Source of the DNA: a virus
Lineage: Duplodnaviria; Caudoviricetes
Reading direction: 5' to 3' (one strand)
Virus record (IMG/VR): IMGVR_UViG_3300011008_002712
DNA length: 64,000 nucleotides
In this document: in pieces, positions 3,843 to 61,418 of the stretch
Layout: every line of letters starts with the position of its first letter
How positions within the stretch are numbered: position 1 is the first letter of the stretch
Translations under genes and position numbers: made by a program
The notes under the pieces: model-generated
What the model saw: the letters and a program-made list of their open reading frames with translations, nothing else
Database searches by the model: none
Told to the model about the DNA's origin: nothing

Positions 3843-3963
3843 AATAAATCGTGTTAGAAATGTTCCCATTGTTCTTTGAAGTAGTTAGAGCTTCGGCTAT
3901 GATGAATGCATTTGTTCAGTGCAGGAACATCCAGAAAGCATTTTTATGCTAGAAGAGTGCAGC

Positions 3964-3991
3964 AAAGGCTAGACTTGATTCTAGCCTTTTT
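3964..3991 (+). terminator. intrinsic terminator
   Basis: AAAGGCTAGA-CTTGAT-TCTAGCCTTT followed by T run. Confidence 0.7.
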
Positions 3992-4052
3992 GTTATTAAC
4001 TATTTACAAATAATTTTCTTATGATAAAATAGTAAAAAAAGGAGGATGAAAG

Positions 4053-4514
4053 ATGAAAAGAATATGTTTGTTAGTTTTTTCAATTATGTGTTTTTTCAAT
4101 GTATGTTCTGCACAAGAACCTGCTCCATTTCATGACACTTGGACCATGAGAGAATACTATAAGGAAATAAATAACTATTTATCTCATTTAAAAATCACTG
4201 GATGTTATTTCTATGATGTAGTAAATGGATTAGAAACATATACAGCAATATTTGATAAAAATCCAGATAACATTTTGCTAATTGGTATGATGGATGGGAA
4301 AATAGTACAAATTGTATCGTCCGATGAAAATGAGATGCAATTAAATGATAAAATCTTGGCTACCTTGAATATGTTCGGTGCAAATGCAAAAGAAAAAGAT
4401 TTAATGCTTGCAAAGAAAAATGGAGCAATAATGATCAAAGGGAATGACAGAGATTTTATCATAAGATACGAAAAACAAGACATTCCAACATATATCATTT
4501 ATGCTGCAAAATAA
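4053..4514 (+). CDS. putative secreted protein
   Basis: Signal-peptide-like MKRICLLVFSIMCFFNVCSA; GGAGG RBS; own promoter at 4003..4030 and terminator at ~4521..4551. Confidence 0.8.
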   Translation: MKRICLLVFSIMCFFNVCSAQEPAPFHDTWTMREYYKEINNYLSHLKITGCYFYDVVNGLETYTAIFDKNPDNILLIGMMDGKIVQIVSSDENEMQLNDKILATLNMFGANAKEKDLMLAKKNGAIMIKGNDRDFIIRYEKQDIPTYIIYAAK

Positions 4515-4608
4515 AAAACTAGGCATAGCAAATTTTACGCTATGCCTTTTTAATTTTTGTGTACAATGCTATTTACTTTTGATACAATGAAATCAAAGGA
4601 GTGATTTC

Positions 4609-5100
4609 ATGAAAAAATTGTTGATTGTATTGTTATTCATACCCAATATTTGCTTTGCTATTCCAGTCACAGATATGTCAATAGGAAAATTTATGCATGA
4701 ATTTAATACATGCATTTTGTCAATAACAAATAACAACATTCATGTAACTGGTTTTCATTATTTTTCTAAATTAAATGGACAAGATGTCTATAAAGTAAAA
4801 TTCAACAATAACATAAATTCTAGAATGTATGTATGCTTAAAAAACAATCAAATACAACAATTGCTTTTTATTAATGAGCAATATAATGATGAAGCTCTTA
4901 GACACGCGATAATCAAAGTAAAAGCTTCTCTAATTGCTTTAGGAATCTCACCAGAATCATCTATGAATACAATCACCAAATGTGTAAAAAAAGATGATGG
5001 AAGGGTATATTCGTTTTCAAAACAAGAAAACAGGTTATTGCTTATAGCAGTAGACGACAATGACAAAGAGATTAATTTCCATATATTGGGAGATGAATAA
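4609..5100 (+). CDS. putative secreted protein (paralogue of 4053..4514)
   Basis: Signal-peptide-like MKKLLIVLLFIPNICFA; VTGFHYFSKLNG aligns with ITGCYFYDVVNG. Confidence 0.8.
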   Translation: MKKLLIVLLFIPNICFAIPVTDMSIGKFMHEFNTCILSITNNNIHVTGFHYFSKLNGQDVYKVKFNNNINSRMYVCLKNNQIQQLLFINEQYNDEALRHAIIKVKASLIALGISPESSMNTITKCVKKDDGRVYSFSKQENRLLLIAVDDNDKEINFHILGDE

Positions 5101-5106
5101 TTTTTA

Positions 5107-5736
5107 ATGAATTACGAAGGTATAAAATATTTTGATGAAAAATTCAATCATAAACATGCAGAGCAAATGATACGAACAATCTTTAATGATTTTTCCTTAA
5201 AACCATCAAAAATAGAAAGTGCTCGTACTTGGAATAACTTCTTTATGAATCATGATAGCATGCATAAACTCGCATTCAAAGGAGCATATGTTCCAGACGG
5301 ATTGAAAGTCATTACAAATGATTTGATTTCTCTAATAGAAGAAATAATTGTAGAAAGCTATAAAAAGAATGTTACATTTTTAATACCAATATACGAAAAT
5401 GTTGCGAAAAGCATGATTCAGTCATCTACTGATTCATTTGCTGCAGCTAATTTATATGTCATGGACATGATAAGTTTTGATTATTGTTTAGCTGTTGATT
5501 TTTCAAAAGAAAAGTACATCAAAGTAATTGATGCTATTTTGACTAATCTAGTATCATTATGCTTGATATATAGAATTAGAAATAAAATTTTCAATATATC
5601 TGAAAGTACATTCACACGTAATATTCAATTACTATTGCATAACGGATATATGCAAGAGAAAGTCATTTTGCCATTTGATAAAATAAGTGACCTAGAAATA
5701 GATGATATATATGAAGAATATGATAAGAAGTATTGA
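5107..5736 (+). CDS. hypothetical protein
   Basis: 209-aa ORF in operon order. Confidence 0.7.
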   Translation: MNYEGIKYFDEKFNHKHAEQMIRTIFNDFSLKPSKIESARTWNNFFMNHDSMHKLAFKGAYVPDGLKVITNDLISLIEEIIVESYKKNVTFLIPIYENVAKSMIQSSTDSFAAANLYVMDMISFDYCLAVDFSKEKYIKVIDAILTNLVSLCLIYRIRNKIFNISESTFTRNIQLLLHNGYMQEKVILPFDKISDLEIDDIYEEYDKKY

Positions 5737-5774
5737 AAAATAGTTATTCAAATAAAAAAATTTCAATTTAGCTA

Positions 5775-5803
5775 TTTACTTTCTAAGAATTCTATGGTAG
5801 AAT
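5775..5803 (+). promoter_or_regulatory. tandem promoter P1
   Basis: AAAAAATTTCAA UP-like tract, TTTACT-N17-TAGAAT, extended TG. Confidence 0.75.
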
Positions 5804-5871
5804 AAATTCAAGAGGTAAACAAATAGAGATGAAAGGAAGTGGTGAACAAACAAAAAATTTCAAAAAAACTA

Positions 5872-5900
5872 TTTACAAACGCTGAAGACTATGGTATAAT
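5872..5900 (+). promoter_or_regulatory. tandem promoter P2
   Basis: AAAAAATTTCAAAAAAA UP-like tract, TTTACA-N17-TATAAT, extended TG. Confidence 0.85.
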
Positions 5901-5927
5901 ACAATCAAGAAGTGAATAAAAAAGTCG

Positions 5928-6053
5928 CAGGAATTTTGTGTAAGCACCTCACGTTTGGCATTCCAGATGCTGTGAGTTCCGATAGCAACGGAAACAACGA
6001 ATGCCCTCTTGTCTGGAGAGAGAACCTCAAATGGCAGCGGCGGTGAAGTCCTG
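5928..6053 (+). ncRNA. putative structured non-coding RNA domain
   Basis: GC-richer than flanks. CAGGA/TCCTG closing helix, three internal hairpins, complementary TCCAGA (5962) and TCTGGA (6012). Confidence 0.45.
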
Positions 6054-6102
6054 AAGGTGGATGAGTAACCTAAAAACTTCTAAAAAAATTTCAAAAAAAC
6101 TA

Positions 6103-6131
6103 TTTACAAACACAGAAGACTATGGTATAAT
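6103..6131 (+). promoter_or_regulatory. tandem promoter P3 (near-identical to P2)
   Basis: ~50-bp direct repeat of the P2 cassette; TTTACA-N17-TATAAT. Confidence 0.85.
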
Positions 6132-6671
6132 AAATACAAGAGGTAAGGAAAGGAGTGGATTATCTTCTAAAACAAAAACACACATCATAAAGATAAATTA
6201 GAAAATACTGGAGAGATAAAAACAATGAAAATGATGAATCGATACTTACTTTAGACCTCCAGAGAGGGCATAAACTGGAAATCAAACGAGCCCATTCTAA
6301 AAAATATTGAAAGGAGTAATTAACTTGTAGCAATATTCTGGAACTCCAGTGGCTTGGCTGGAAATCAAATCTTGACCACACTAAAAATAAAAATAAGGCG
6401 CATAGAAAGGAATATGTGCGGAATGGAGGAATTAAACATAGAGCTAAAATTGTTGTGCAACCGACACACATGAGGTTGCTGAGGCGCTAAAGCGTAGGCC
6501 TGAGGCTCCTGTGCACGGGAGTGGATTTACAGAATTTCTCAGGAACCGGGTTTGTGGAAGGGCCCATTACATTTTATAAAATAAAAATGAAAGAAGGTGA
6601 TTGAGTTGGCAACAAAGAAGTAGATTGGTTTATATCAAACATTGTATAAAGGAAAAATGCAGGCGAAAAAG

Positions 6672-6710
6672 AAGCAGCGGCTAAGATGATTGAAGATTGC
6701 CGCTGCTTTA
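6672..6710. terminator. probable bidirectional terminator
   Basis: AAGCAGCGGC...GCCGCTGCTT stem between convergent transcription units. Confidence 0.7.
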
Positions 6711-6711
6711 A

Positions 6712-6942
6712 TTATGAAAGATATTTATTGAACAAATTTCTGATTATCGGGATGTATGTTTCTGAATCGGTTTCAATGCTTCTTGGAAGAAATAATTCAA
6801 ATGACTTATCATCTTGATCTTGGACGTTTTTCTTTTGTTTAGTTTGTTCTTTGTTTTTATATTGATTATTGTATCTATTGTGATTAAGAAAAATAGGAGA
6901 AACGGGTTGCACTTTTAAATCATTCATTGTCTCCACTCTCAC
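6712..6942 (-). CDS. hypothetical protein
   Basis: ORF downstream of 6920..7252; start may be the internal Met. Confidence 0.55.
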   Translation of the reverse strand: MRVETMNDLKVQPVSPIFLNHNRYNNQYKNKEQTKQKKNVQDQDDKSFELFLPRSIETDSETYIPIIRNLFNKYLS

Positions 6943-7252: not shown

Positions 7253-7440
7253 TTTATCACTTCCTTAAAATATGTACCTTTATAAAAAAAATAAAAAATG
7301 TAAATTAGAACATAACAATGTCTATGAGATAGCAACTACTAGTAGTTGTCAACCATTATTATATATATTTTTCTTTGTTTGCTTGTTTTTATAAATTATT
7401 TCATAATGAAATGCCATTGCAAAATAAAGGAGTTGAAAAT

Positions 7441-8559
7441 ATGAGAAACACGGAATATTTAATAAAACCAGTAATTGAACATATGCAAACTCATTTAGAC
7501 ATGGATGGTAAATATACACATGGAAATATTACTTATTTTTACAGTAACATGATGTCTAATAAATTAGATTATGGATTAAACATACCGAAGCGTAAAAATG
7601 ATATTGTATATATTTACGAAATTGCAAGTTTCGATATCAAAAACATGTTTTGCCAAAAAGGACTTTATCAACTTTTCATCAAAGAAAAAGATAACTATAT
7701 CAAAAATACATTTCAATTTCATCAATTTCGAGTTGTGGATTATTTTAAAGAGTCAATCTGGTATTATAATGCAAATAAATCTGAACCAAGTCAAAAGTTG
7801 TATACAAAAATAAAGAATTTTTTAGATTCAGATAATGATGAACAAGTTTTTCATGATTATAAAAATAAAATTCATTCTTATATCAAGAAATTTGAAAATT
7901 GCTATTTGACAATTCAAATCAATAAATCAAATCATGTTGGAGAACTCCCAATTTTCTATATTAACTATTTTTTAATTACTCCATTTTTTACATTGAAATT
8001 GACAGAAAATGAAGTTTGGAAAATGTTTAAATTTGATAAAAGGATCAAAGAAATTGTTTTTAATACTGTTGCGCGACCAAATTACAGGAACAAAGAGATT
8101 GTTTCATACTTGCTAGGGAATGATAAATCTTATTTTTTAGATCCAATTAATGTATGTCAAGAAAGAAAAACATATTTTAAAAACATGCGTGATAAAAAAT
8201 GCGTTACTTATGTAGACAACAAATTATGCAAAGACGAAATCGCCGAATTGATGAATGATTTTATATATGCAACTTGCAGAGGAAAAACTATGGAGAAACT
8301 CATAGAGCCTCTAGATAGTTTCAAAGATTATTCAAAATATGAAAATGATTTAGGCGCAGTTGTAGAAACAAGAAATTTCAACTACTATTTTTTGAATACA
8401 CAATTTGGAATGATGCCATTAAAATTTTTATATTCAAAGATATTTGATTATGAGGATTTTAATGAAGAAAAAGTAAACAAATACGATAACATTATCAAAC
8501 AACTTGAAGTTATGTACGAAAAGAGGAAAAAGTTAGAAAAAATTCTAATGGAGAAATGA
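7441..8559 (+). CDS. hypothetical protein
   Basis: Long ORF; AAGGAG RBS supports ATG at 7441. Confidence 0.8.
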   Translation: MRNTEYLIKPVIEHMQTHLDMDGKYTHGNITYFYSNMMSNKLDYGLNIPKRKNDIVYIYEIASFDIKNMFCQKGLYQLFIKEKDNYIKNTFQFHQFRVVDYFKESIWYYNANKSEPSQKLYTKIKNFLDSDNDEQVFHDYKNKIHSYIKKFENCYLTIQINKSNHVGELPIFYINYFLITPFFTLKLTENEVWKMFKFDKRIKEIVFNTVARPNYRNKEIVSYLLGNDKSYFLDPINVCQERKTYFKNMRDKKCVTYVDNKLCKDEIAELMNDFIYATCRGKTMEKLIEPLDSFKDYSKYENDLGAVVETRNFNYYFLNTQFGMMPLKFLYSKIFDYEDFNEEKVNKYDNIIKQLEVMYEKRKKLEKILMEK

Positions 8560-55742: not shown

Positions 55743-56978
55743 GTGGTTTGCTTAATGGCAAAAAAAGAAGAGAATAAGAATTATTTTTCGGTAACCCCTG
55801 GTGAAATGATCAATTTGTTTGTTGACATGTATAAAGGCGATTTTTCCAGGCAGCCTACTAAAATGCTTTGGGGCCAGCCTGGTGTTGGGAAGTCGCAAGC
55901 TGTAAGGCAATTGGCTGTTCGTCTTGAGCAGGAAACCAGAAAAAAGGTAGAAGTGCATCTCGTTTCTCTTCTCCTTATGAATCCGATTGATTTACGTGGT
56001 ATTCCTTCAAAGGCGCAAGACAAAAATGGAAACGAAGTGACTCGTTGGCTTCAGCCTGAAATTTTCCAGATGGATGACTCAAAGAATAAAATCCATATCT
56101 TGTTCTTGGATGAGATTTCCGCGGCAGTGCCAAGTGTTCAAGCAGCGGCATATCAGATTGCTCTTGACCGTCGAATTGGAGAATTTCAGCTTCCGGATAA
56201 TTGCTTTGTGATTTGTGCAGGCAATCGAGTCACAGACAAGGCAGTGGCATATACAATGCCAAAACCACTTGCAAACAGAATGACACATTTTGAAGTTGTT
56301 TCTAATATTGACGACTGGAAAGTCTGGGCCTATAAAAATGGCCTTGAGGCATTGATTATTGGTTATCTTGATTCTCAGCCGGACGATTTGAACGATTTCA
56401 ATTCTGACAATGACGATGTTGCATTCGCTACGCCGCGCAGCTGGGAAATGGTAGATGTATACTGCAAGACTGCGAATTTGATCGAATTGCTCGACGAAGT
56501 CAACAATGCTGAAAAAAATAAAGTGCATGATTCTCCTGCACATAAAAAGATGAATGCACTTTTCAAACTGATAGCTGGTTCTGTCGGAATGGGCATTGCA
56601 TTGAAATTTCGTCAGTATTTGAAAGTATATCGCTTTTTGCCCAAGTTTGATGATATTGCATCTGGCAGAATAACCGAGGTTGATAAGAGCCTGGCTGATA
56701 GGCTTGACATTCTTCACGCATTGAGTGCCATGATAGCTTCGCGTGTAACAGAATACAGTCGTGAAGGAAAAGGCACATGGGTTAGATCTGATGCGCGTAT
56801 TAAGGCAAACAAATACCTTAATAACGTCGGTAGATATATTGGTTCTTTGCCAAATACTGAATTCAAAGCTTGGGTGATGTCAGACATTTTTGCTGGTATC
56901 GATCCAGACTTTAAGCAGATTTTGGTAAAAAATGAATCGTTCATCAGCTCTTATGACGCAGTAGCACAATTCATTTAA
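55743..56978 (+). CDS. MoxR-like AAA+ ATPase
   Basis: GQPGVGKS, DLRGIP, LFLDE, AGN, LANR and TPRSW motifs. Confidence 0.92.
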   Translation: MVCLMAKKEENKNYFSVTPGEMINLFVDMYKGDFSRQPTKMLWGQPGVGKSQAVRQLAVRLEQETRKKVEVHLVSLLLMNPIDLRGIPSKAQDKNGNEVTRWLQPEIFQMDDSKNKIHILFLDEISAAVPSVQAAAYQIALDRRIGEFQLPDNCFVICAGNRVTDKAVAYTMPKPLANRMTHFEVVSNIDDWKVWAYKNGLEALIIGYLDSQPDDLNDFNSDNDDVAFATPRSWEMVDVYCKTANLIELLDEVNNAEKNKVHDSPAHKKMNALFKLIAGSVGMGIALKFRQYLKVYRFLPKFDDIASGRITEVDKSLADRLDILHALSAMIASRVTEYSREGKGTWVRSDARIKANKYLNNVGRYIGSLPNTEFKAWVMSDIFAGIDPDFKQILVKNESFISSYDAVAQFI

Positions 56979-57023
56979 AATGAGGAGGGAGACTATCTCC
57001 CTCCTTTCATAGAAAGGAAGTTT

Positions 57024-58436
57024 ATGACTAAAAAAATTTCAGCTCAAGAAAAAATGTCAGCTTCTCGTACCAATATTATTCTTAACTTTGGATTTTTTTC
57101 TAGTCTTCTAATGCATCTCAATGTTCGTATGGGCAATGAAATGATGGAAGAAATTGGAATGCCAACCATGGCTACTGATGGTGAAGAAATTATTTATCAT
57201 GAAGAATTCGTAAACAAGTGTACAATATCACAAGTTAATTTTGTAATTCTTCATGAAATTCTTCATGTTGCTCTTGCTCACATGTGGCGCAGGAATAATA
57301 GAAATCCAGAATTATGGAATATGGCATGCGATTTTGTTGTAAACAACGCCTTGAATGAAGTAGTTCAAAGTTATCAGCAAAATAAAAAGAAGAATGAATT
57401 ACGCGAAAATGAACGCGTTGAAATGCCAAAAGATGTTTTGTATGATAAAGCATTTGCAGAAATGTCAGCAGAGGAAGTATATCAATACTTAGAAAAAAAT
57501 GCAAAACAAATCTCTCAACCGCAAGTGCAAATACAAACTACTAGTAGTTCTCAGCAACAATCATCTGGCGGTGGCTTTCATGCAAACGGAAAAGGAAGAA
57601 GGAAACCAGATAATAATAACAACAAAACTACTGGTAGTTCTAACAAATCCCAGAAGCCACAAGGTCCGCAAGGTCAATCTGGTGGAAAGACATACCAGAT
57701 AAATGGAAAAAATTATAAATCTCCATCAAATCATAAATTGTGGGATAAAGCAGATAAATCAGATCAATCCACAAAAAATGAAAAACAAATGGAGTGGGGC
57801 TCAAATCTCATGCAAGCTGCGGAAGATTTGAAGCGTAGAGGATTCGACCCATCATCTCTAAAGCTTCATATCAATGCTCTTATAAAGCCTCAAAAAAATT
57901 GGAAAGCTTTGCTGAGAGATTTCATTGAAGAAGAAATCAATGATTATTCTTTTGCTCCACCAGATCGTAGATATGATTTCGGCGGGATCATGTTGCCAGA
58001 TTTCAACGATAAACAAGAATCGGTAAAAGATTTGTTGTTCTTTGTAGATACTTCTGGCTCAATGTCTGCGGAAGAAATAACAATATGTTATTCCGAAATA
58101 CAAGGTGCCATAAATCAATTCAAAAAAAGATTGCATGGTATTCTTCACTTTTTTGACTTTGATGTCAAAAAGAAAACATACAATTTCGACGATGTATATG
58201 GAGACCTATCAAAGATTATCCCGGTTGGTGGCGGAGGAACAAGCTTTGAAGCTGTCTTTAAATATGTCAACGCAAATAGAAAAAAATACAATAACGTAAA
58301 GGGCATCATTATCATGACAGATGGCGAATGCCCGTATCCAAATGAAAAAATTACTAAAGGCACGCCAGTGCTTTGGATATTTACAACAAGAGGAAATGAA
58401 CCTCCATTCGGAAGGTATACTACTCTGAAACTTTAA
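57024..58436 (+). CDS. DUF2201-type metallopeptidase plus vWA domain protein
   Basis: ATDG, HEILH, WN.ACD..N; DTSGS, GGGT.F, TDG. Confidence 0.9.
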   Translation: MTKKISAQEKMSASRTNIILNFGFFSSLLMHLNVRMGNEMMEEIGMPTMATDGEEIIYHEEFVNKCTISQVNFVILHEILHVALAHMWRRNNRNPELWNMACDFVVNNALNEVVQSYQQNKKKNELRENERVEMPKDVLYDKAFAEMSAEEVYQYLEKNAKQISQPQVQIQTTSSSQQQSSGGGFHANGKGRRKPDNNNNKTTGSSNKSQKPQGPQGQSGGKTYQINGKNYKSPSNHKLWDKADKSDQSTKNEKQMEWGSNLMQAAEDLKRRGFDPSSLKLHINALIKPQKNWKALLRDFIEEEINDYSFAPPDRRYDFGGIMLPDFNDKQESVKDLLFFVDTSGSMSAEEITICYSEIQGAINQFKKRLHGILHFFDFDVKKKTYNFDDVYGDLSKIIPVGGGGTSFEAVFKYVNANRKKYNNVKGIIIMTDGECPYPNEKITKGTPVLWIFTTRGNEPPFGRYTTLKL

Positions 58437-58504
58437 CGTGTGGAAAGCCGCTAGTAATTTTGCTAGCGGCTATTTATAAATTTAAAAAAAGGAGATGTAA
58501 AAAA

Positions 58505-58870
58505 ATGAATGAAGAACTTAAAATGAAAAGAAAAGAAGAAGGCAAGCGCAGAGCTTTAGAATATCTAAAGCAATGCATCGACGCAAATGGGACATTGAAT
58601 ATAACCAATTTTAGAAATTTGCATCGCGCTGAATATGAAAAATTGGCTAGTTATTTTGGTTCTGTTGACAATGCAGTTGCAGAGGCTGGCGCTATAAAAA
58701 TTACAACGCAAAAAAATACGCCAACAGTAATGCAAAGACTTGCATATGATTATATTCGTGAGCAAATAAAAACAAAATCAATTGCAGAACTGGCAAGGAA
58801 ATACAATGTATCTAGAGCAACATTAAATCAGTTGTTTAAAAGACTACAAAATGTTATCGAAAACGAATGA
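58505..58870 (+). CDS. HTH DNA-binding protein
   Basis: SIAELARKYNVSRATL; AAGGAG RBS. Confidence 0.75.
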   Translation: MNEELKMKRKEEGKRRALEYLKQCIDANGTLNITNFRNLHRAEYEKLASYFGSVDNAVAEAGAIKITTQKNTPTVMQRLAYDYIREQIKTKSIAELARKYNVSRATLNQLFKRLQNVIENE

Positions 58871-58897
58871 ACTGCACTCATTGAGGAGAACGAAGTA

Positions 58898-59614
58898 ATG
58901 GCCAAGAAAATTATTTTAGGTTCAGTCAATCTAGAACATGTTAGCAGTAATTATGAATGGTACTCAATTGTAACCAATTATAATATGGAAGAGCAATATG
59001 TTGAAAATATTATGAATGCTGTATCTGGAACACAATTTGAATCTCAAATAGCCGAATATTACATTCCAATAAAATACATATTGACTAACCCAGATAAAGT
59101 TGCAACAGAAAATGCAAAGCCAAAAATCAAAAAAGAAAAAGGTTGCTATGCAAGCTATGTATTTATCAAATGTAAAATGGATGAAGGACTTTGGACTTTA
59201 TTGAGAACAACAACGGGTGCAAGTGTTATCATTACTATTGGCGGAATTCCAGTTTCAGTGTCAGACGAAGAAATCAATAATATTAAAATTAATCAAGTAC
59301 CAACATCTTTTGGGGTTGAAAAATCTGTGCAATTATTAGCACAACAATATAAGAAATTTGTTAAGATTATTCCTGGAATAAATGATGATCATCCAGAAAA
59401 TTGTCCAGAACCAGATCTGGAAAAAATAGAATATTGGTTTAAACAAGCGAGAAGAAAAACAAAGAAATTTCTTGAAAAAGAAAGAAAAAAAGAGCTTAAA
59501 AATAATGATTTAGAATTACAAACCACGAATAATGATAAAATAACAAAAGCACATTCAAATCAAATAGATACAAAACAAACATGGGAAAATGCAAAAAATA
59601 AATTCTACAAATAA
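58898..59614 (+). CDS. NusG-family NGN-domain protein (no recognisable KOW)
   Basis: WY...T..N.E; IP; Y.SYVFI..M..L.R.T.G; P..VS.EEI. Confidence 0.8.
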   Translation: MAKKIILGSVNLEHVSSNYEWYSIVTNYNMEEQYVENIMNAVSGTQFESQIAEYYIPIKYILTNPDKVATENAKPKIKKEKGCYASYVFIKCKMDEGLWTLLRTTTGASVIITIGGIPVSVSDEEINNIKINQVPTSFGVEKSVQLLAQQYKKFVKIIPGINDDHPENCPEPDLEKIEYWFKQARRKTKKFLEKERKKELKNNDLELQTTNNDKITKAHSNQIDTKQTWENAKNKFYK

Positions 59615-59623
59615 AAGGAGGTA

Positions 59624-60925
59624 TTGAAAATGGCATCATTATACGTTGAGTCAAACGAAGAAAATTTTTCTTATGTTATCAATAAAAATCCAGCCTCTGG
59701 AATGTCAGCGAAAAGAATAAAAAAAGGATATATGTTTGGCTATTTTTCAAATGAAAATAGATATAATATAGTATTTTTCGACGGAGCAGATGAGATTAGT
59801 TTTTCTGATAGAATTAAACAAGAGTTTGAATATCTTGATTATACAAGATATAATTCTCCGTTATTTGTGTTTAGCACATTAAAAGCATTTTTTCATAGCT
59901 CTATCAATAGCCCAAATGAGTTTGATCATCCAGGGAAATATTTGCTTAAGATTACATCAATCAAAATCAAAAAATTCGCACTTTTTGAAAAATTCAAAGA
60001 ATATTTTAAAGATTCGTTCTCTATTCAAACAGAACGTATACCTCACGAACATGACAATGAAGAATATAATAAATATTATAATAATTATACATTAACACTT
60101 TCCGTTGAAAACAAAACATTTTATGAATTGATTAATTTTACATATGTTTTGTCTTTTTTCTTTATCATTATGAATCGGATTGAATTTGACATTAATTTAG
60201 ATATTATTAAAAAGGTAATTAAATCTGCTAATATTATAGAATCTCCATACTATATTAAATATCTAATCAAATTTTTCGCAATCAAAAGAACCGAAGATTT
60301 CTCTAAAGTAAAAGATGAATTGAATAAAGACAATCATCATGTTTTAAATATCAAGCCATATTCTAATTTTGACGCTAGATATGCAGATATTACAAACCAG
60401 CTAATTGGCAATAAAAATATAGTTGATGTTGGATGTGGTGAAGGCAATTATCTAAAAGTAGCAGAAAAAATTAATAATACCTATTATGCCATTGATATTG
60501 ATGAAGAAAAAAGAAATATTATCAAGAAAAAAGTTGATTGTTACAAACTTGAAAATGTTTCAATTTTAGATTCTGTTGAATCTTTTTTCAAACAAGATGC
60601 AGATGATTATATTGTTTTGATGAGCGAAGTGATAGAGCATAATGAATTAAACGATGTTACATCAATGATAAAAATGTTTTTCAATGATGAAAATTGCAAA
60701 AAAATTATCATCACAACACCCAACAAAGATTTCAATCAATTCTATCTTTTGAAAGATAATGAAACCAGATATAGTGATCATAAGTTTGAATTCACCGAAC
60801 AAGAAGCAATTTCATATTTTACTGATATAGCTAAAAACACTCCATTCAAACTAACAATCAGACATCTTGGAGATGAAGTAGATAATATTCCTACAACATT
60901 AATGATTATTTTTACTGCGGGGTGA
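59624..60925 (+). CDS. Hen1-like 3'-terminal RNA 2'-O-methyltransferase
   Basis: SY.I.KNP N-domain; DVGCGEG, EVIEH, TTPN..FN, R..DH.FE; adjacent to Pnkp. Confidence 0.85.
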   Translation: MKMASLYVESNEENFSYVINKNPASGMSAKRIKKGYMFGYFSNENRYNIVFFDGADEISFSDRIKQEFEYLDYTRYNSPLFVFSTLKAFFHSSINSPNEFDHPGKYLLKITSIKIKKFALFEKFKEYFKDSFSIQTERIPHEHDNEEYNKYYNNYTLTLSVENKTFYELINFTYVLSFFFIIMNRIEFDINLDIIKKVIKSANIIESPYYIKYLIKFFAIKRTEDFSKVKDELNKDNHHVLNIKPYSNFDARYADITNQLIGNKNIVDVGCGEGNYLKVAEKINNTYYAIDIDEEKRNIIKKKVDCYKLENVSILDSVESFFKQDADDYIVLMSEVIEHNELNDVTSMIKMFFNDENCKKIIITTPNKDFNQFYLLKDNETRYSDHKFEFTEQEAISYFTDIAKNTPFKLTIRHLGDEVDNIPTTLMIIFTAG

Positions 60926-60929
60926 TACT

Positions 60930-61418
60930 TTGTTATATACGTTAGAATTATCAAACATATTGCCATATGATTTTTATTATTCTCATTCTACACAATATAG
61001 TGCAGAAGAACTTCTTATGGCTGCAATACAATCAAAACAAAATATATGTGATGAAGTTTTAGATTTTTATAATGCTAACCTACAAATTAAAATAAAAATT
61101 TCTAATGGATTACAAGATGGAATACCAGTAAATATATACGCTATTATTGATTACAAAACAAAAGACGTATGTATGGCTACATTTACAGAGCATGGGCCAT
61201 TAAATTATTGTATGTATGGCAAACAAAATGCGTCTAAATGTTCTTCAAAAAATGAAAAATTTATAAATGAAATAGAACCATCGCTTAGATACATGATGAT
61301 CATGAATTATCAAGACATTATCGAATTAAACACAAATATTTTTAGCAAGATTTGCATGACAGATTCGCAAATTCATCAGTTGATTGAAAAATTTAAAGAA
61401 GAACATAAAAAGGAGTGA
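60930..61418 (+). CDS. hypothetical protein between Hen1 and Pnkp
   Basis: Operon-packed ORF. Confidence 0.65.
   Translation: MLYTLELSNILPYDFYYSHSTQYSAEELLMAAIQSKQNICDEVLDFYNANLQIKIKISNGLQDGIPVNIYAIIDYKTKDVCMATFTEHGPLNYCMYGKQNASKCSSKNEKFINEIEPSLRYMMIMNYQDIIELNTNIFSKICMTDSQIHQLIEKFKEEHKKE

Follow-up and report, generated by a model that had tools for sequence, protein, structure and literature searches.

What kind of gene lies behind three tandem strong promoters when the RNA they are predicted to produce runs into a terminator without crossing an open reading frame (ORF) of ordinary length? This question is raised by positions 5755-6708 of a 64,000-nucleotide (nt) stretch of phage DNA (IMG/VR virus record IMGVR_UViG_3300011008_002712), hereafter the window, which corresponds to positions 223998-287997, minus strand, of a 416,024-bp virus record. 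The record has a G+C content of ~28%, carries 12 transfer RNA (tRNA) genes and a transfer-messenger RNA (tmRNA) gene, and uses the standard genetic code, with no suppressor tRNA found. A conserved protein that was tested shares 35% identity with gp576 of Bacillus phage G, and promoters as well as ribosome-binding sites follow the Firmicute type; the phage is a 416-kb relative of phage G. A preliminary description of the locus had proposed an abundant early non-coding RNA (ncRNA) acting as a sponge. Our analysis, in which all promoter, terminator, and Shine-Dalgarno (SD) assignments were made from sequence only, puts a probability of roughly 0.8 on the unit in the window having arisen by deletion from a composite RNA in which mini-ORFs are combined with structured segments. 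The RNA family to which it would belong appears to be an undescribed and fast-evolving one, in which GC-rich covarying hairpins alternate with SD-led mini-ORFs of 1-11 codons.

The composite form is found in the closest relatives of this phage. A sister phage (L010) was reached via the 209-amino acid (aa) protein encoded upstream of the locus, of which it holds the one relative (92% identity), and its contig runs colinear with the window at 96-97% identity; another assembly, L012, matches the window exactly. A third lineage (L031) was reached via the downstream 110-aa protein (86% aa identity). The reverse complement of its contig, which stops within the locus just upstream of its counterpart of the TTG-TAG start-stop at window 6309-6330, shares ~70-88% identity with L010 across the locus. 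Searches with the 209-aa, 394-aa, and 163-aa neighbour proteins found no relatives besides the sister phage. Relative to the window, L010 contains two extra blocks of 277 nt (7300-7576) and 224 nt (7599-7822), and because the outgroup L031 has both of them too, the window has lost these blocks by two deletions. The scars lie at 6398-6433 on the + strand, with junction 1 after 6412 (277 nt missing) and junction 2 after 6433 (224 nt missing). The hairpin formed by 6398-6404 and 6413-6419, which displays GAAAGGAA in its loop, was made by junction 1, and its arms lie 285 nt apart in L010. Likewise, the SD at 6421-6429 has no start codon behind it, its ORF having been deleted, and chimeric frames of 16-24 codons span the deletion junction. 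Kept in the window are the promoters, a GC-rich island termed RNA1, two hairpin units, three residual tiny ORFs, orphan SDs, and a structured 3' domain.

The blocks missing from the window hold very short genes. Three strong SDs in the L010 blocks are each followed by a 7-codon ORF (9 codons from an upstream ATG) encoding M(TM)YTSGF(I/V), and a further SD precedes MKNMFEAMHFR; L031 encodes five more YTSGF mini-ORFs together with MFEAMHFR. The heptapeptide M-Y-T-S-G-F-x is therefore present in three copies in L010, five in L031, and none in the window, nor is there a YTSGF ORF anywhere else in the genome of the window's phage. All five core residues are invariant across the eight copies, with codons that vary at the third position for Tyr, Thr, Gly, and Phe, and with Ser using TCN as well as AGC. 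Copies 2 and 3 of L010 differ by six nucleotides in four codons, and all six differences are synonymous (including Ser TCA to AGC); at this distance the peptide would be kept by chance in 261 of 13.5 million sequences (~2e-5). For MFEAMHFR, four of the four nucleotide differences between L010 and L031 are synonymous. The two peptides are under amino-acid-level selection in the L010 and L031 lineages. The YTSGF motif was not found in a more distant relative, G001, or in the viral, metagenome, and genome collections scanned, and no mention of it was found in the literature.

The SDs of the YTSGF and MFEAMHFR ORFs have energies of -10 to -13.5 kcal/mol, comparable to those of real genes, and the internal SDs in L010 and L031 precede conserved mini-ORF start codons by 4-10 nt. 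In the three close lineages every mini-ORF ends in TAG, including the three residual tiny ORFs of the window, a stop codon used by 8.3% of the long ORFs in the genome (TAG followed by C, 1%). The residual ORFs, all on the + strand, comprise MKMMNRYLL at 6225-6254, with a weak SD (-6.7 kcal/mol); a TTG-TAG start-stop at 6309-6330, placed 8 nt behind the strong SD GAAAGGAG (-12.2 kcal/mol); and the 5-codon ORF LATKK at 6589-6623, behind the strongest SD of the unit (-16.2 kcal/mol duplex). The TTG-TAG start-stop also occurs in L010 and L031, its SD being confirmed in L010 only, as the L031 contig ends upstream, while LATKK with its SD is not conserved in L031. Five of the seven strong SDs in L010 have a start codon behind them, versus two of the five in the window, where the others are the relic at 6421-6429, the leader of the third promoter, and an SD at 6260 that lacks an ORF in either phage.

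Apart from the mini-ORFs, the RNA itself shows signs of constraint. The ORF-less RNA shared by the window and L010 (5907-6412 and 6433-6711) differs by 8 substitutions in 785 nt, or 1.0%, versus a synonymous divergence of 12.2% pooled over ten flanking genes (15% for the immediate upstream neighbour and 5-7% for the nearest two downstream genes) and a nonsynonymous divergence of 1.8%. Compared with the adjacent synonymous sites, this difference is significant (Fisher P=0.002 and 2e-11), and by this measure the RNA sequence is under purifying selection. The structured 3' domain (6455-6566, +) consists of five hairpins (6457-6462/6474-6479; 6484-6487/6492-6495; 6497-6504/6538-6547; 6505-6511/6516-6522; 6548-6553/6560-6565), which were written by hand and counted on the alignment of the window, L010, and L031. 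This revealed that 94.6% of cells are paired and that four pairs have changed on both sides, values reached by 5 of 500 shuffles; slid controls gave 34-47% pairing and 0-1 compensations. Between L010 and L031, covariation is seen as well in hairpins of the spacers that separate the mini-ORFs, and the minimum free energy (MFE) of 6138-6715 has a z-score of -3.6 versus shuffles. The GC-rich block in the preliminary description is real, its hairpins being backed by covariation, and the comparison indicates that part of the RNA is a structured RNA.

Other elements of the fold are less clear-cut. Two paralogous units of ~85 nt (6250-6342 and 6333-6432, +) share 74% identity, and each contains one of two exact occurrences of CTGGAAATCAAA (6275-6286 and 6358-6369), a motif that the preliminary description had likewise counted twice and that is found nowhere else in the 416-kb genome. 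RNA1 (5924-6060, +), between the second and third promoters, has an MFE multi-branch fold with a closing helix at 5924-5928/6037-6041. Only two substitutions separate it from the sister phage, both in the predicted closing helix and with pairing kept, which as a sign of conserved pairing is suggestive and no more. A long-range closing helix that pairs 6222-6252 with 6617-6645 (6222-6645, +; -18.4 kcal/mol) is a prediction only; it is predicted in both the short and the long form of the RNA, with a pair probability of 0.83-0.87 in the longer RNA of the sister phage. A TCTAAA linker after hairpins is weakly enriched (P ~0.05 and 0.01-0.05) and absent from L031.

The unit that carries these elements stands alone, with a predicted RNA of 0.8-0.9 kb extending up to the terminator. 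As first described, three direct repeats (5755-5828, 5852-5925, and 6083-6156; mutual identity 70-100%) each consist of an A-tract, TTTAC(T/A), a 17-nt spacer, TGnTA(G/T)AAT, and then AAGA(G/A)GT, and each forms a near-consensus promoter on the + strand. P1 (5755-5803) has an A-tract/UP-like element, the -35 TTTACT at 5775-5780, a 17-nt spacer, and the extended -10 TGGTAGAAT ending at 5803. Both P2 (5852-5900; 11/12 consensus matches) and P3 (6083-6131) read TTTACA-17-TATAAT with TG, and the tract upstream of P3 is identical to that of P2. The promoter parts of the query gave 24 matches genome-wide, and the promoter pattern gave 60, of which ~55 look real. Promoters of this class almost always have an SD, an ATG, and an ORF of at least 50 aa within 20-60 nt downstream, the exceptions being P1, P2, P3, and the promoter of the tmRNA gene. 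P1-P3 are copies of the host-sigma-A-like early promoter that is standard for this phage, and it is from these promoters only that the RNA is taken to be abundant and early. The terminator hairpin at 6672-6708 (10-11-bp GC stem, 17-nt loop) has a T-run on both strands and is for this reason considered bidirectional, common to the unit and to the convergent genes for a 76-aa and a 110-aa protein.

Directly behind the promoters lies a polypurine segment, AAGAGGTAAACAA after P1 (5810-5822, +, beginning 6 nt past the -10) and AAGAGGTAAGGAA after P3 (6138-6150, +, at the predicted transcript start), with P2 carrying a weaker variant. No start codon lies at a usable distance from the P3 copy. AAGAGGTAAGGAA occurs at a fixed +6 after the -10 in 23 of the 60 promoter matches, most of which have their true start codon 13-32 nt further on, usually behind a second SD. 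Given this fixed position and the distance to the start codon, the motif is a 5'-terminal polypurine leader and not an initiation site, and it accounts for the CAAGA(G/A)GT and the first GGA cluster noted after each promoter in the preliminary description. Another tandem pair of promoters of the early class occurs ~4.9 kb upstream of where the window starts (oriented -4939 and -4833, spacing 106 nt); the first of the pair is followed only by a polypurine leader, an SD, and the next promoter, the layout seen from P1 to P2, which suggests that promoter duplication recurs in the genome. The P3 leader region at 6160-6200 (GGAGTGGATTA then TCTTCTAAA) resembles the start of two paralogous 105-108-aa genes (GGAGTGGATATAAATGAAGGGTGTATCTTCTAAG) located ~6.6 and 5.3 kb upstream of the window (-6639 and -5349), with the start-codon stretch missing, and P3 may have been copied from the start of such a gene.

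How do these results bear on the GGA motifs that led to the sponge proposal? GAAAGGA occurs three times in 6138-6715 (P=0.0005), so that its repetition is genuine, and 17 GGA in these 578 nt place the segment among the highest 0.5% of genome windows; for its own composition, however, the count is not in excess, as shuffles contain 12.2 ± 2.8 (P=0.065). Most GGA motifs lie outside predicted loops. Two of the GAAAGGA copies are in predicted loops, and the loop at 6398-6419 belongs to the deletion scar. Most of the strongest SD-type GGA motifs are, as far as sequence comparison can tell, ribosome-binding sites or their relics, since conserved peptides that explain the SD motifs, an outcome named in the preliminary description as refuting its proposal, exist in L010 and L031 and the corresponding ORFs have been deleted from the window. 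What survives of the ncRNA proposal is a stand-alone unit without a long ORF, under purifying selection and structured in part, while its SD/GGA sites for a protein sponge do not. No support was found for a defence-RNase decoy or an RNA-polymerase sink, and the anti-SD/ribosome option comes nearest to the reading developed here.

Conservation of the locus beyond the close lineages is one of place more than of sequence. The type of locus, convergent with the 76-aa/110-aa gene pair, occupies the same genomic place in at least four related uncultivated jumbo phages. In the 504-kb relative G001 (74% aa identity in one tested conserved protein, the DUF2201 protein) the RNA body has no DNA match. 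The syntenic locus there holds a single promoter of the class and ~1 kb of sequence rich in GC islands, in which the one ORF, of 93 aa, is doubtful; it closes with a bidirectional terminator that faces homologues of the 76-aa/110-aa gene pair. Weak colinear matches include the leader, a short ORF beginning MKNM, and the same SD context as in the close lineages, set ahead of a 7-codon ORF that stops at TAG. With the covariance model of the 3' domain, no match was obtained in G001 or phage G, and hits were confined to the close clade. A sequence that looks tRNA-like by eye (GGTTCAATGGTAGAAT...) lies directly upstream of the syntenic promoter of G001 (L030 1-110).

We propose the following as the best explanation of the locus, for which, with identity and mechanism taken together, our confidence falls somewhat short of even odds. 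Three tandem host-type promoters, each with a polypurine leader, would drive an early RNA that ends at the bidirectional terminator. The 5' leader and the internal SDs would load 30S subunits and ribosomes, which would in turn protect the RNA. In the full form of the RNA, ribosomes would translate the very short ORFs and terminate at UAG, which is read by release factor 1 (RF1) only, with one of two outcomes: either ribosomes, release factor, or tRNAs would be engaged, as with the bar minigenes of phage lambda, or a heptapeptide effector would be released. In the window's phage, only the RNA-level part and a residual minigene part could still operate. That such an RNA would act through the translation machinery, and not by way of a separate RNA-binding protein, is suggested by its strong promoters, strong SDs, ORFs of 1-11 codons, RF1-only stop in a rare context, and amplification, although a mechanism directed at translation remains tentative and, by itself, clearly less probable than the composite identity. 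A narrower version, which we consider doubtful, has the family aimed at translation termination: each unit, made of a strong SD, a 7-8-codon ORF with the conserved nascent peptide YTSGF, and an obligatory RF1-only UAG whose context is weak, would stall the terminating ribosome or trap it, or would shed peptidyl-tRNA. With 3-5 units per molecule, an abundant early RNA could then tie up host ribosomes, RF1, or tRNAs, while the phage's own peptidyl-tRNA hydrolase (Pth), tmRNA, and tRNAs would protect phage translation; the window's phage, lacking the peptide units but still producing the structured RNA, would amount to a natural knockout.

The phage does encode a Pth, at ~47857-48351 (-) of the window (PF01195, 185.9 bits, a 185-aa open frame). 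The gene adjoins the tmRNA gene at 46948-47278 (-; tag ANEEYAIAA), which is preceded by an early-class promoter at ~47456 (-); the 12 tRNA genes, clustered at 31.5-39.6 kb, are ~8 kb away from the Pth gene. The position of Pth beside the tmRNA gene is compatible with a translation-directed reading and constitutes circumstantial evidence.

Several observations weigh against the composite, translation-directed RNA proposed here. The collections searched hold only three close lineages and one distant one, so that covariation rests on effectively two independent sequences; the 7-codon ORF of G001 encodes an unrelated peptide, MAKIDYG; and two more distant relatives (61-65% identity in the 110-aa protein) have ordinary genes at this position. 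RNA1 has no thermodynamic signal (z 0.1 to 1.0), and the long-range helix is modestly supported, with an empirical P of ~0.016 for one pre-chosen pair. The window copy does without the conserved mini-ORFs, so this phage can dispense with whatever they do, and its copy might be in the course of being lost; nor can the small distance to L010 demonstrate any constraint acting after the deletions. The final sense codon is not fixed in the YTSGF ORFs (Val, Ile, Ser, or Thr), which does not fit the sequestration of one particular tRNA. Simple drop-off, moreover, has no need of a conserved peptide. The peptide would then matter either as a nascent chain, by arresting the ribosome or slowing termination, or after its release, as an effector.

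The rival that survives best, unlikely as we hold it to be, is a purely structural trans-acting ncRNA, whether scaffold, decoy, or sponge, in which SDs and mini-ORFs just keep ribosomes on the RNA and so block 5'-3' or endonucleolytic decay. If only protective, the SDs and mini-ORFs would be optional and could be shed, as by the window's phage, which has lost the conserved mini-ORFs but retains RNA1, the hairpin units, and the covarying 3' domain. Nucleotide constraint that covers stretches without any ORF, the MFE z-score, and the covarying spacer hairpins are likewise in keeping with a structural RNA, and ribosome binding at an SD-like 5' end is among the established Bacillus stabilisers listed in PMC3997798 and PMC5737220. 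Stabilisation alone, however, leaves five constant residues and a TAG stop across eight copies unexplained, and the 3'-domain covariance model matches nothing outside the close clade. Nor does the RNA match an Rfam family or have a complementary target in the phage genome. The Rfam search proposed in the preliminary description returned, at the gathering threshold, only the tmRNA and tRNA genes elsewhere in the window and nothing in 5600-6900; at E<=10, cmscan of window 5600-6900 and L010 6600-8150 gave chance snoRNA-type rows only. The models for 6S, Y RNA, GOLLD, ROOL, OLE, tmRNA, and tRNA do not match 5600-6900 even at E<=10. An antisense search of the phage genome found no target above chance.

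Somewhat more doubtful still is an operon for the heptapeptide (M)YTSGFx and the octapeptide MFEAMHFR, which would be produced within the cytoplasm itself at an early stage of infection and might, for example, mimic or inhibit a host peptide-sensing regulator or enzyme, with the window copy as a functionless relic. The strong amino-acid-level selection in two lineages, the amplification to three and five copies, and the strong SD that each copy has of its own (in the range given above) are what such an operon would show, and both peptide genes have been lost together from the window. Yet the RNA that remains is structured and as conserved as the nonsynonymous sites of its neighbours, which a mere spacer would not need. 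The absence of the motif from G001 and all collections scanned, as well as from the literature found, also counts against an operon of this type, as does the lack of a signal sequence in the YTSGF peptide. A receptor gene is not recognisable nearby, as none of the six flanking ORFs that were scanned, all within ~4 kb, matched a family.

It is very improbable that the locus is a decaying, functionless spacer, or a promoter cluster serving as an RNA-polymerase sink, with promoters duplicated by recombination and a body of junk. The tandem promoter pair ~4.9 kb upstream of the window offers a precedent for such duplication, the locus undergoes large deletions, and two more distant relatives lack it. 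A spacer would nevertheless not be expected to diverge by 1.0% next to synonymous sites that diverge by 6-15%, to contain five hairpins with compensatory changes, or to be kept as a locus type in the same place in G001 despite near-total sequence turnover. To our knowledge, no small RNA that sponges CsrA has been described in Firmicutes, where the CsrA antagonist is FliW. A CsrA/RsmA-type sponge that titrates a host translational repressor through GGA motifs in hairpin loops is hardly credible here, despite the 17 GGA and three GAAAGGA with two in predicted loops, given that GGA does not exceed own-composition shuffles, that one loop is a deletion scar, that the motifs are leaders and full SDs before start codons in relatives, and that no Csr, CsrB, or Rsm covariance model matched window 5600-6900 or L010 6600-8150 at E<=10.

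Other identities for the locus were considered and rejected. The absence of a + strand ORF of at least 60 aa from 5737-6720, previously reported, holds under the standard code and with TGA, TAG, or TAA read through; an alternative genetic code would open no long frame on read-through, and the genome yielded no suppressor tRNA for one. A pseudogene of a paralogue was rejected, as blastx against the 3,271 stop-to-stop frames of the genome matched the promoter repeats only. No frame, including those of the extra blocks of the sister phage, matched Pfam or PHROGs. The antisense 103-aa ORF at 6160-6471 lacks an SD and has a Cys/Phe/Leu/Ser-rich antisense composition. For a 44-aa ORF in RNA1, a full HMMER search gave four matches (to SRCR, LVIVD/FG-GAP, and histidine-kinase proteins), which are not homology because their E-values sum weak matches over repeats. 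The short ORFs that were said to run through the promoter repeats do exist (25/26 aa and 46 aa); all four aa differences of the 25/26-aa ORF from the sister phage are replacements, including a compensated frame shift in A-runs, a pattern that promoter spacing would explain equally well. An antitoxin RNA of a type III toxin-antitoxin system (ToxI-like) would be expected to have ~36-nt tandem repeats followed by a toxin ORF, and the locus has just two diverged ~85-nt units and no ORF before the terminator. A leader or arrest-peptide attenuator was set aside as well, since the transcript enters the terminator at 6672-6708 and the next genes are convergent. Finally, blastn against 50,697 phage records found promoter-like matches of 65-85 nt only (in phage G and Enterococcus phages), and viral, metagenome, and genome contigs scanned with the heptapeptide ORF, with the loop motif, or with a 20-mer from the GC block gave only chance matches within unrelated coding regions.

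The surroundings of the locus yielded further observations. The flanking early genes (window 5107-5736 and others) evolve fast and belong to no Pfam or PHROG family; the 209-aa protein is 92% identical (nonsynonymous divergence, pN, 0.035; synonymous divergence, pS, 0.154) between phages whose intergenic RNA is 99% identical. L010 carries, at 3863-5344, a gene for a 493-aa RRXRR/HNH endonuclease between homologues of the 153-aa and 163-aa genes, which the window lacks (gap at 4514-4609), and this gene is probably a mobile homing-endonuclease insertion. At 55743-60925 (+) of the window, a MoxR-like AAA ATPase adjoins a DUF2201 metallopeptidase and a VWA protein, followed by Hen1, an RNA 2'-O-methyltransferase (Hen1_N, 153 bits). 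The ORF that starts at 61415 and runs past the window end may encode the Pnkp partner of Hen1.

Unannotated DNA fills long early regions in the jumbo phages of Firmicutes, and here one such 'empty' stretch appears to be a selected RNA gene of a type that no annotation pipeline would call, made of covarying hairpins and 7-8-codon genes with a conserved peptide and stop. SD-rich 'non-coding' phage RNAs should accordingly be checked for ORFs below the threshold of gene callers, and a hairpin seen in one genome may be a deletion scar. Haplotypes with zero, three, and five copies of the heptapeptide ORF provide a ready-made allelic series.

Among known systems, GOLLD and ROOL (Rfam), often phage-borne near tRNA genes, resemble the locus in being several hundred nt long, GC-rich versus the genome, and multi-hairpin; the locus RNA differs in lacking an Rfam match (E<=10), in having translatable mini-ORFs, and in being confined to one small clade. 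The tarsal-less/polished rice gene of insects was also first taken for a non-coding RNA and likewise contains a very short ORF in several copies that share a conserved peptide core, but its 11-32-aa peptides are eukaryotic and unrelated in sequence and host, so that this is an analogy only. The leader peptides of Erm, Cat, and MsrD in Firmicutes share 6-9-codon ORFs with a strong SD, a conserved nascent peptide, and adjoining hairpins. In contrast to those leaders, the locus ORFs are multi-copy, have no known link to an antibiotic or ligand and no sequence similarity, and, with the unit ending at a terminator that faces convergent genes, have nothing downstream to regulate. The Bacillus mRNA stabiliser of Hue, Cohen, and Bechhofer reportedly derives from an early phage SP82 RNA. 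STAB-SD and polypurine 5' stabilisers of this kind (Agaisse and Lereclus 1996; Hue, Cohen and Bechhofer 1995; both as listed in PMC3997798 and PMC5737220) are matched in the locus by an SD-like polypurine at the extreme 5' end that does not initiate, present in 23 of the 60 promoters including P1 and P3. The likeness covers only the first GGA cluster per promoter and not the RNA body, and stabilisation here is putative.

The nearest described parallel, by analogy, would be the lambda bar minigenes, which consist of an SD and a 2-codon ORF and whose expression leads to peptidyl-tRNA drop-off and to tRNA starvation when Pth is limiting (PMC2490762, PMC8012679). The locus differs in that its ORFs form arrays of up to five with a conserved peptide and a non-constant last sense codon, that its units are set among covarying hairpins, and that the window copy lacks the main ORFs. 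Shared with lambda bar are a strongly promoted phage RNA in which SDs precede few-codon ORFs (1, 5, and 7-11 codons here), a poor stop context (TAG, mostly followed by C), and a phage that encodes Pth and tmRNA. The bar minigenes have so far been mainly a laboratory curiosity. If the mini-ORFs described here act on ribosomes, RF1, or tRNA pools, they would be a natural, amplified counterpart of those minigenes, and such an action would give a reason for these phages to carry a Pth and tmRNA of their own.

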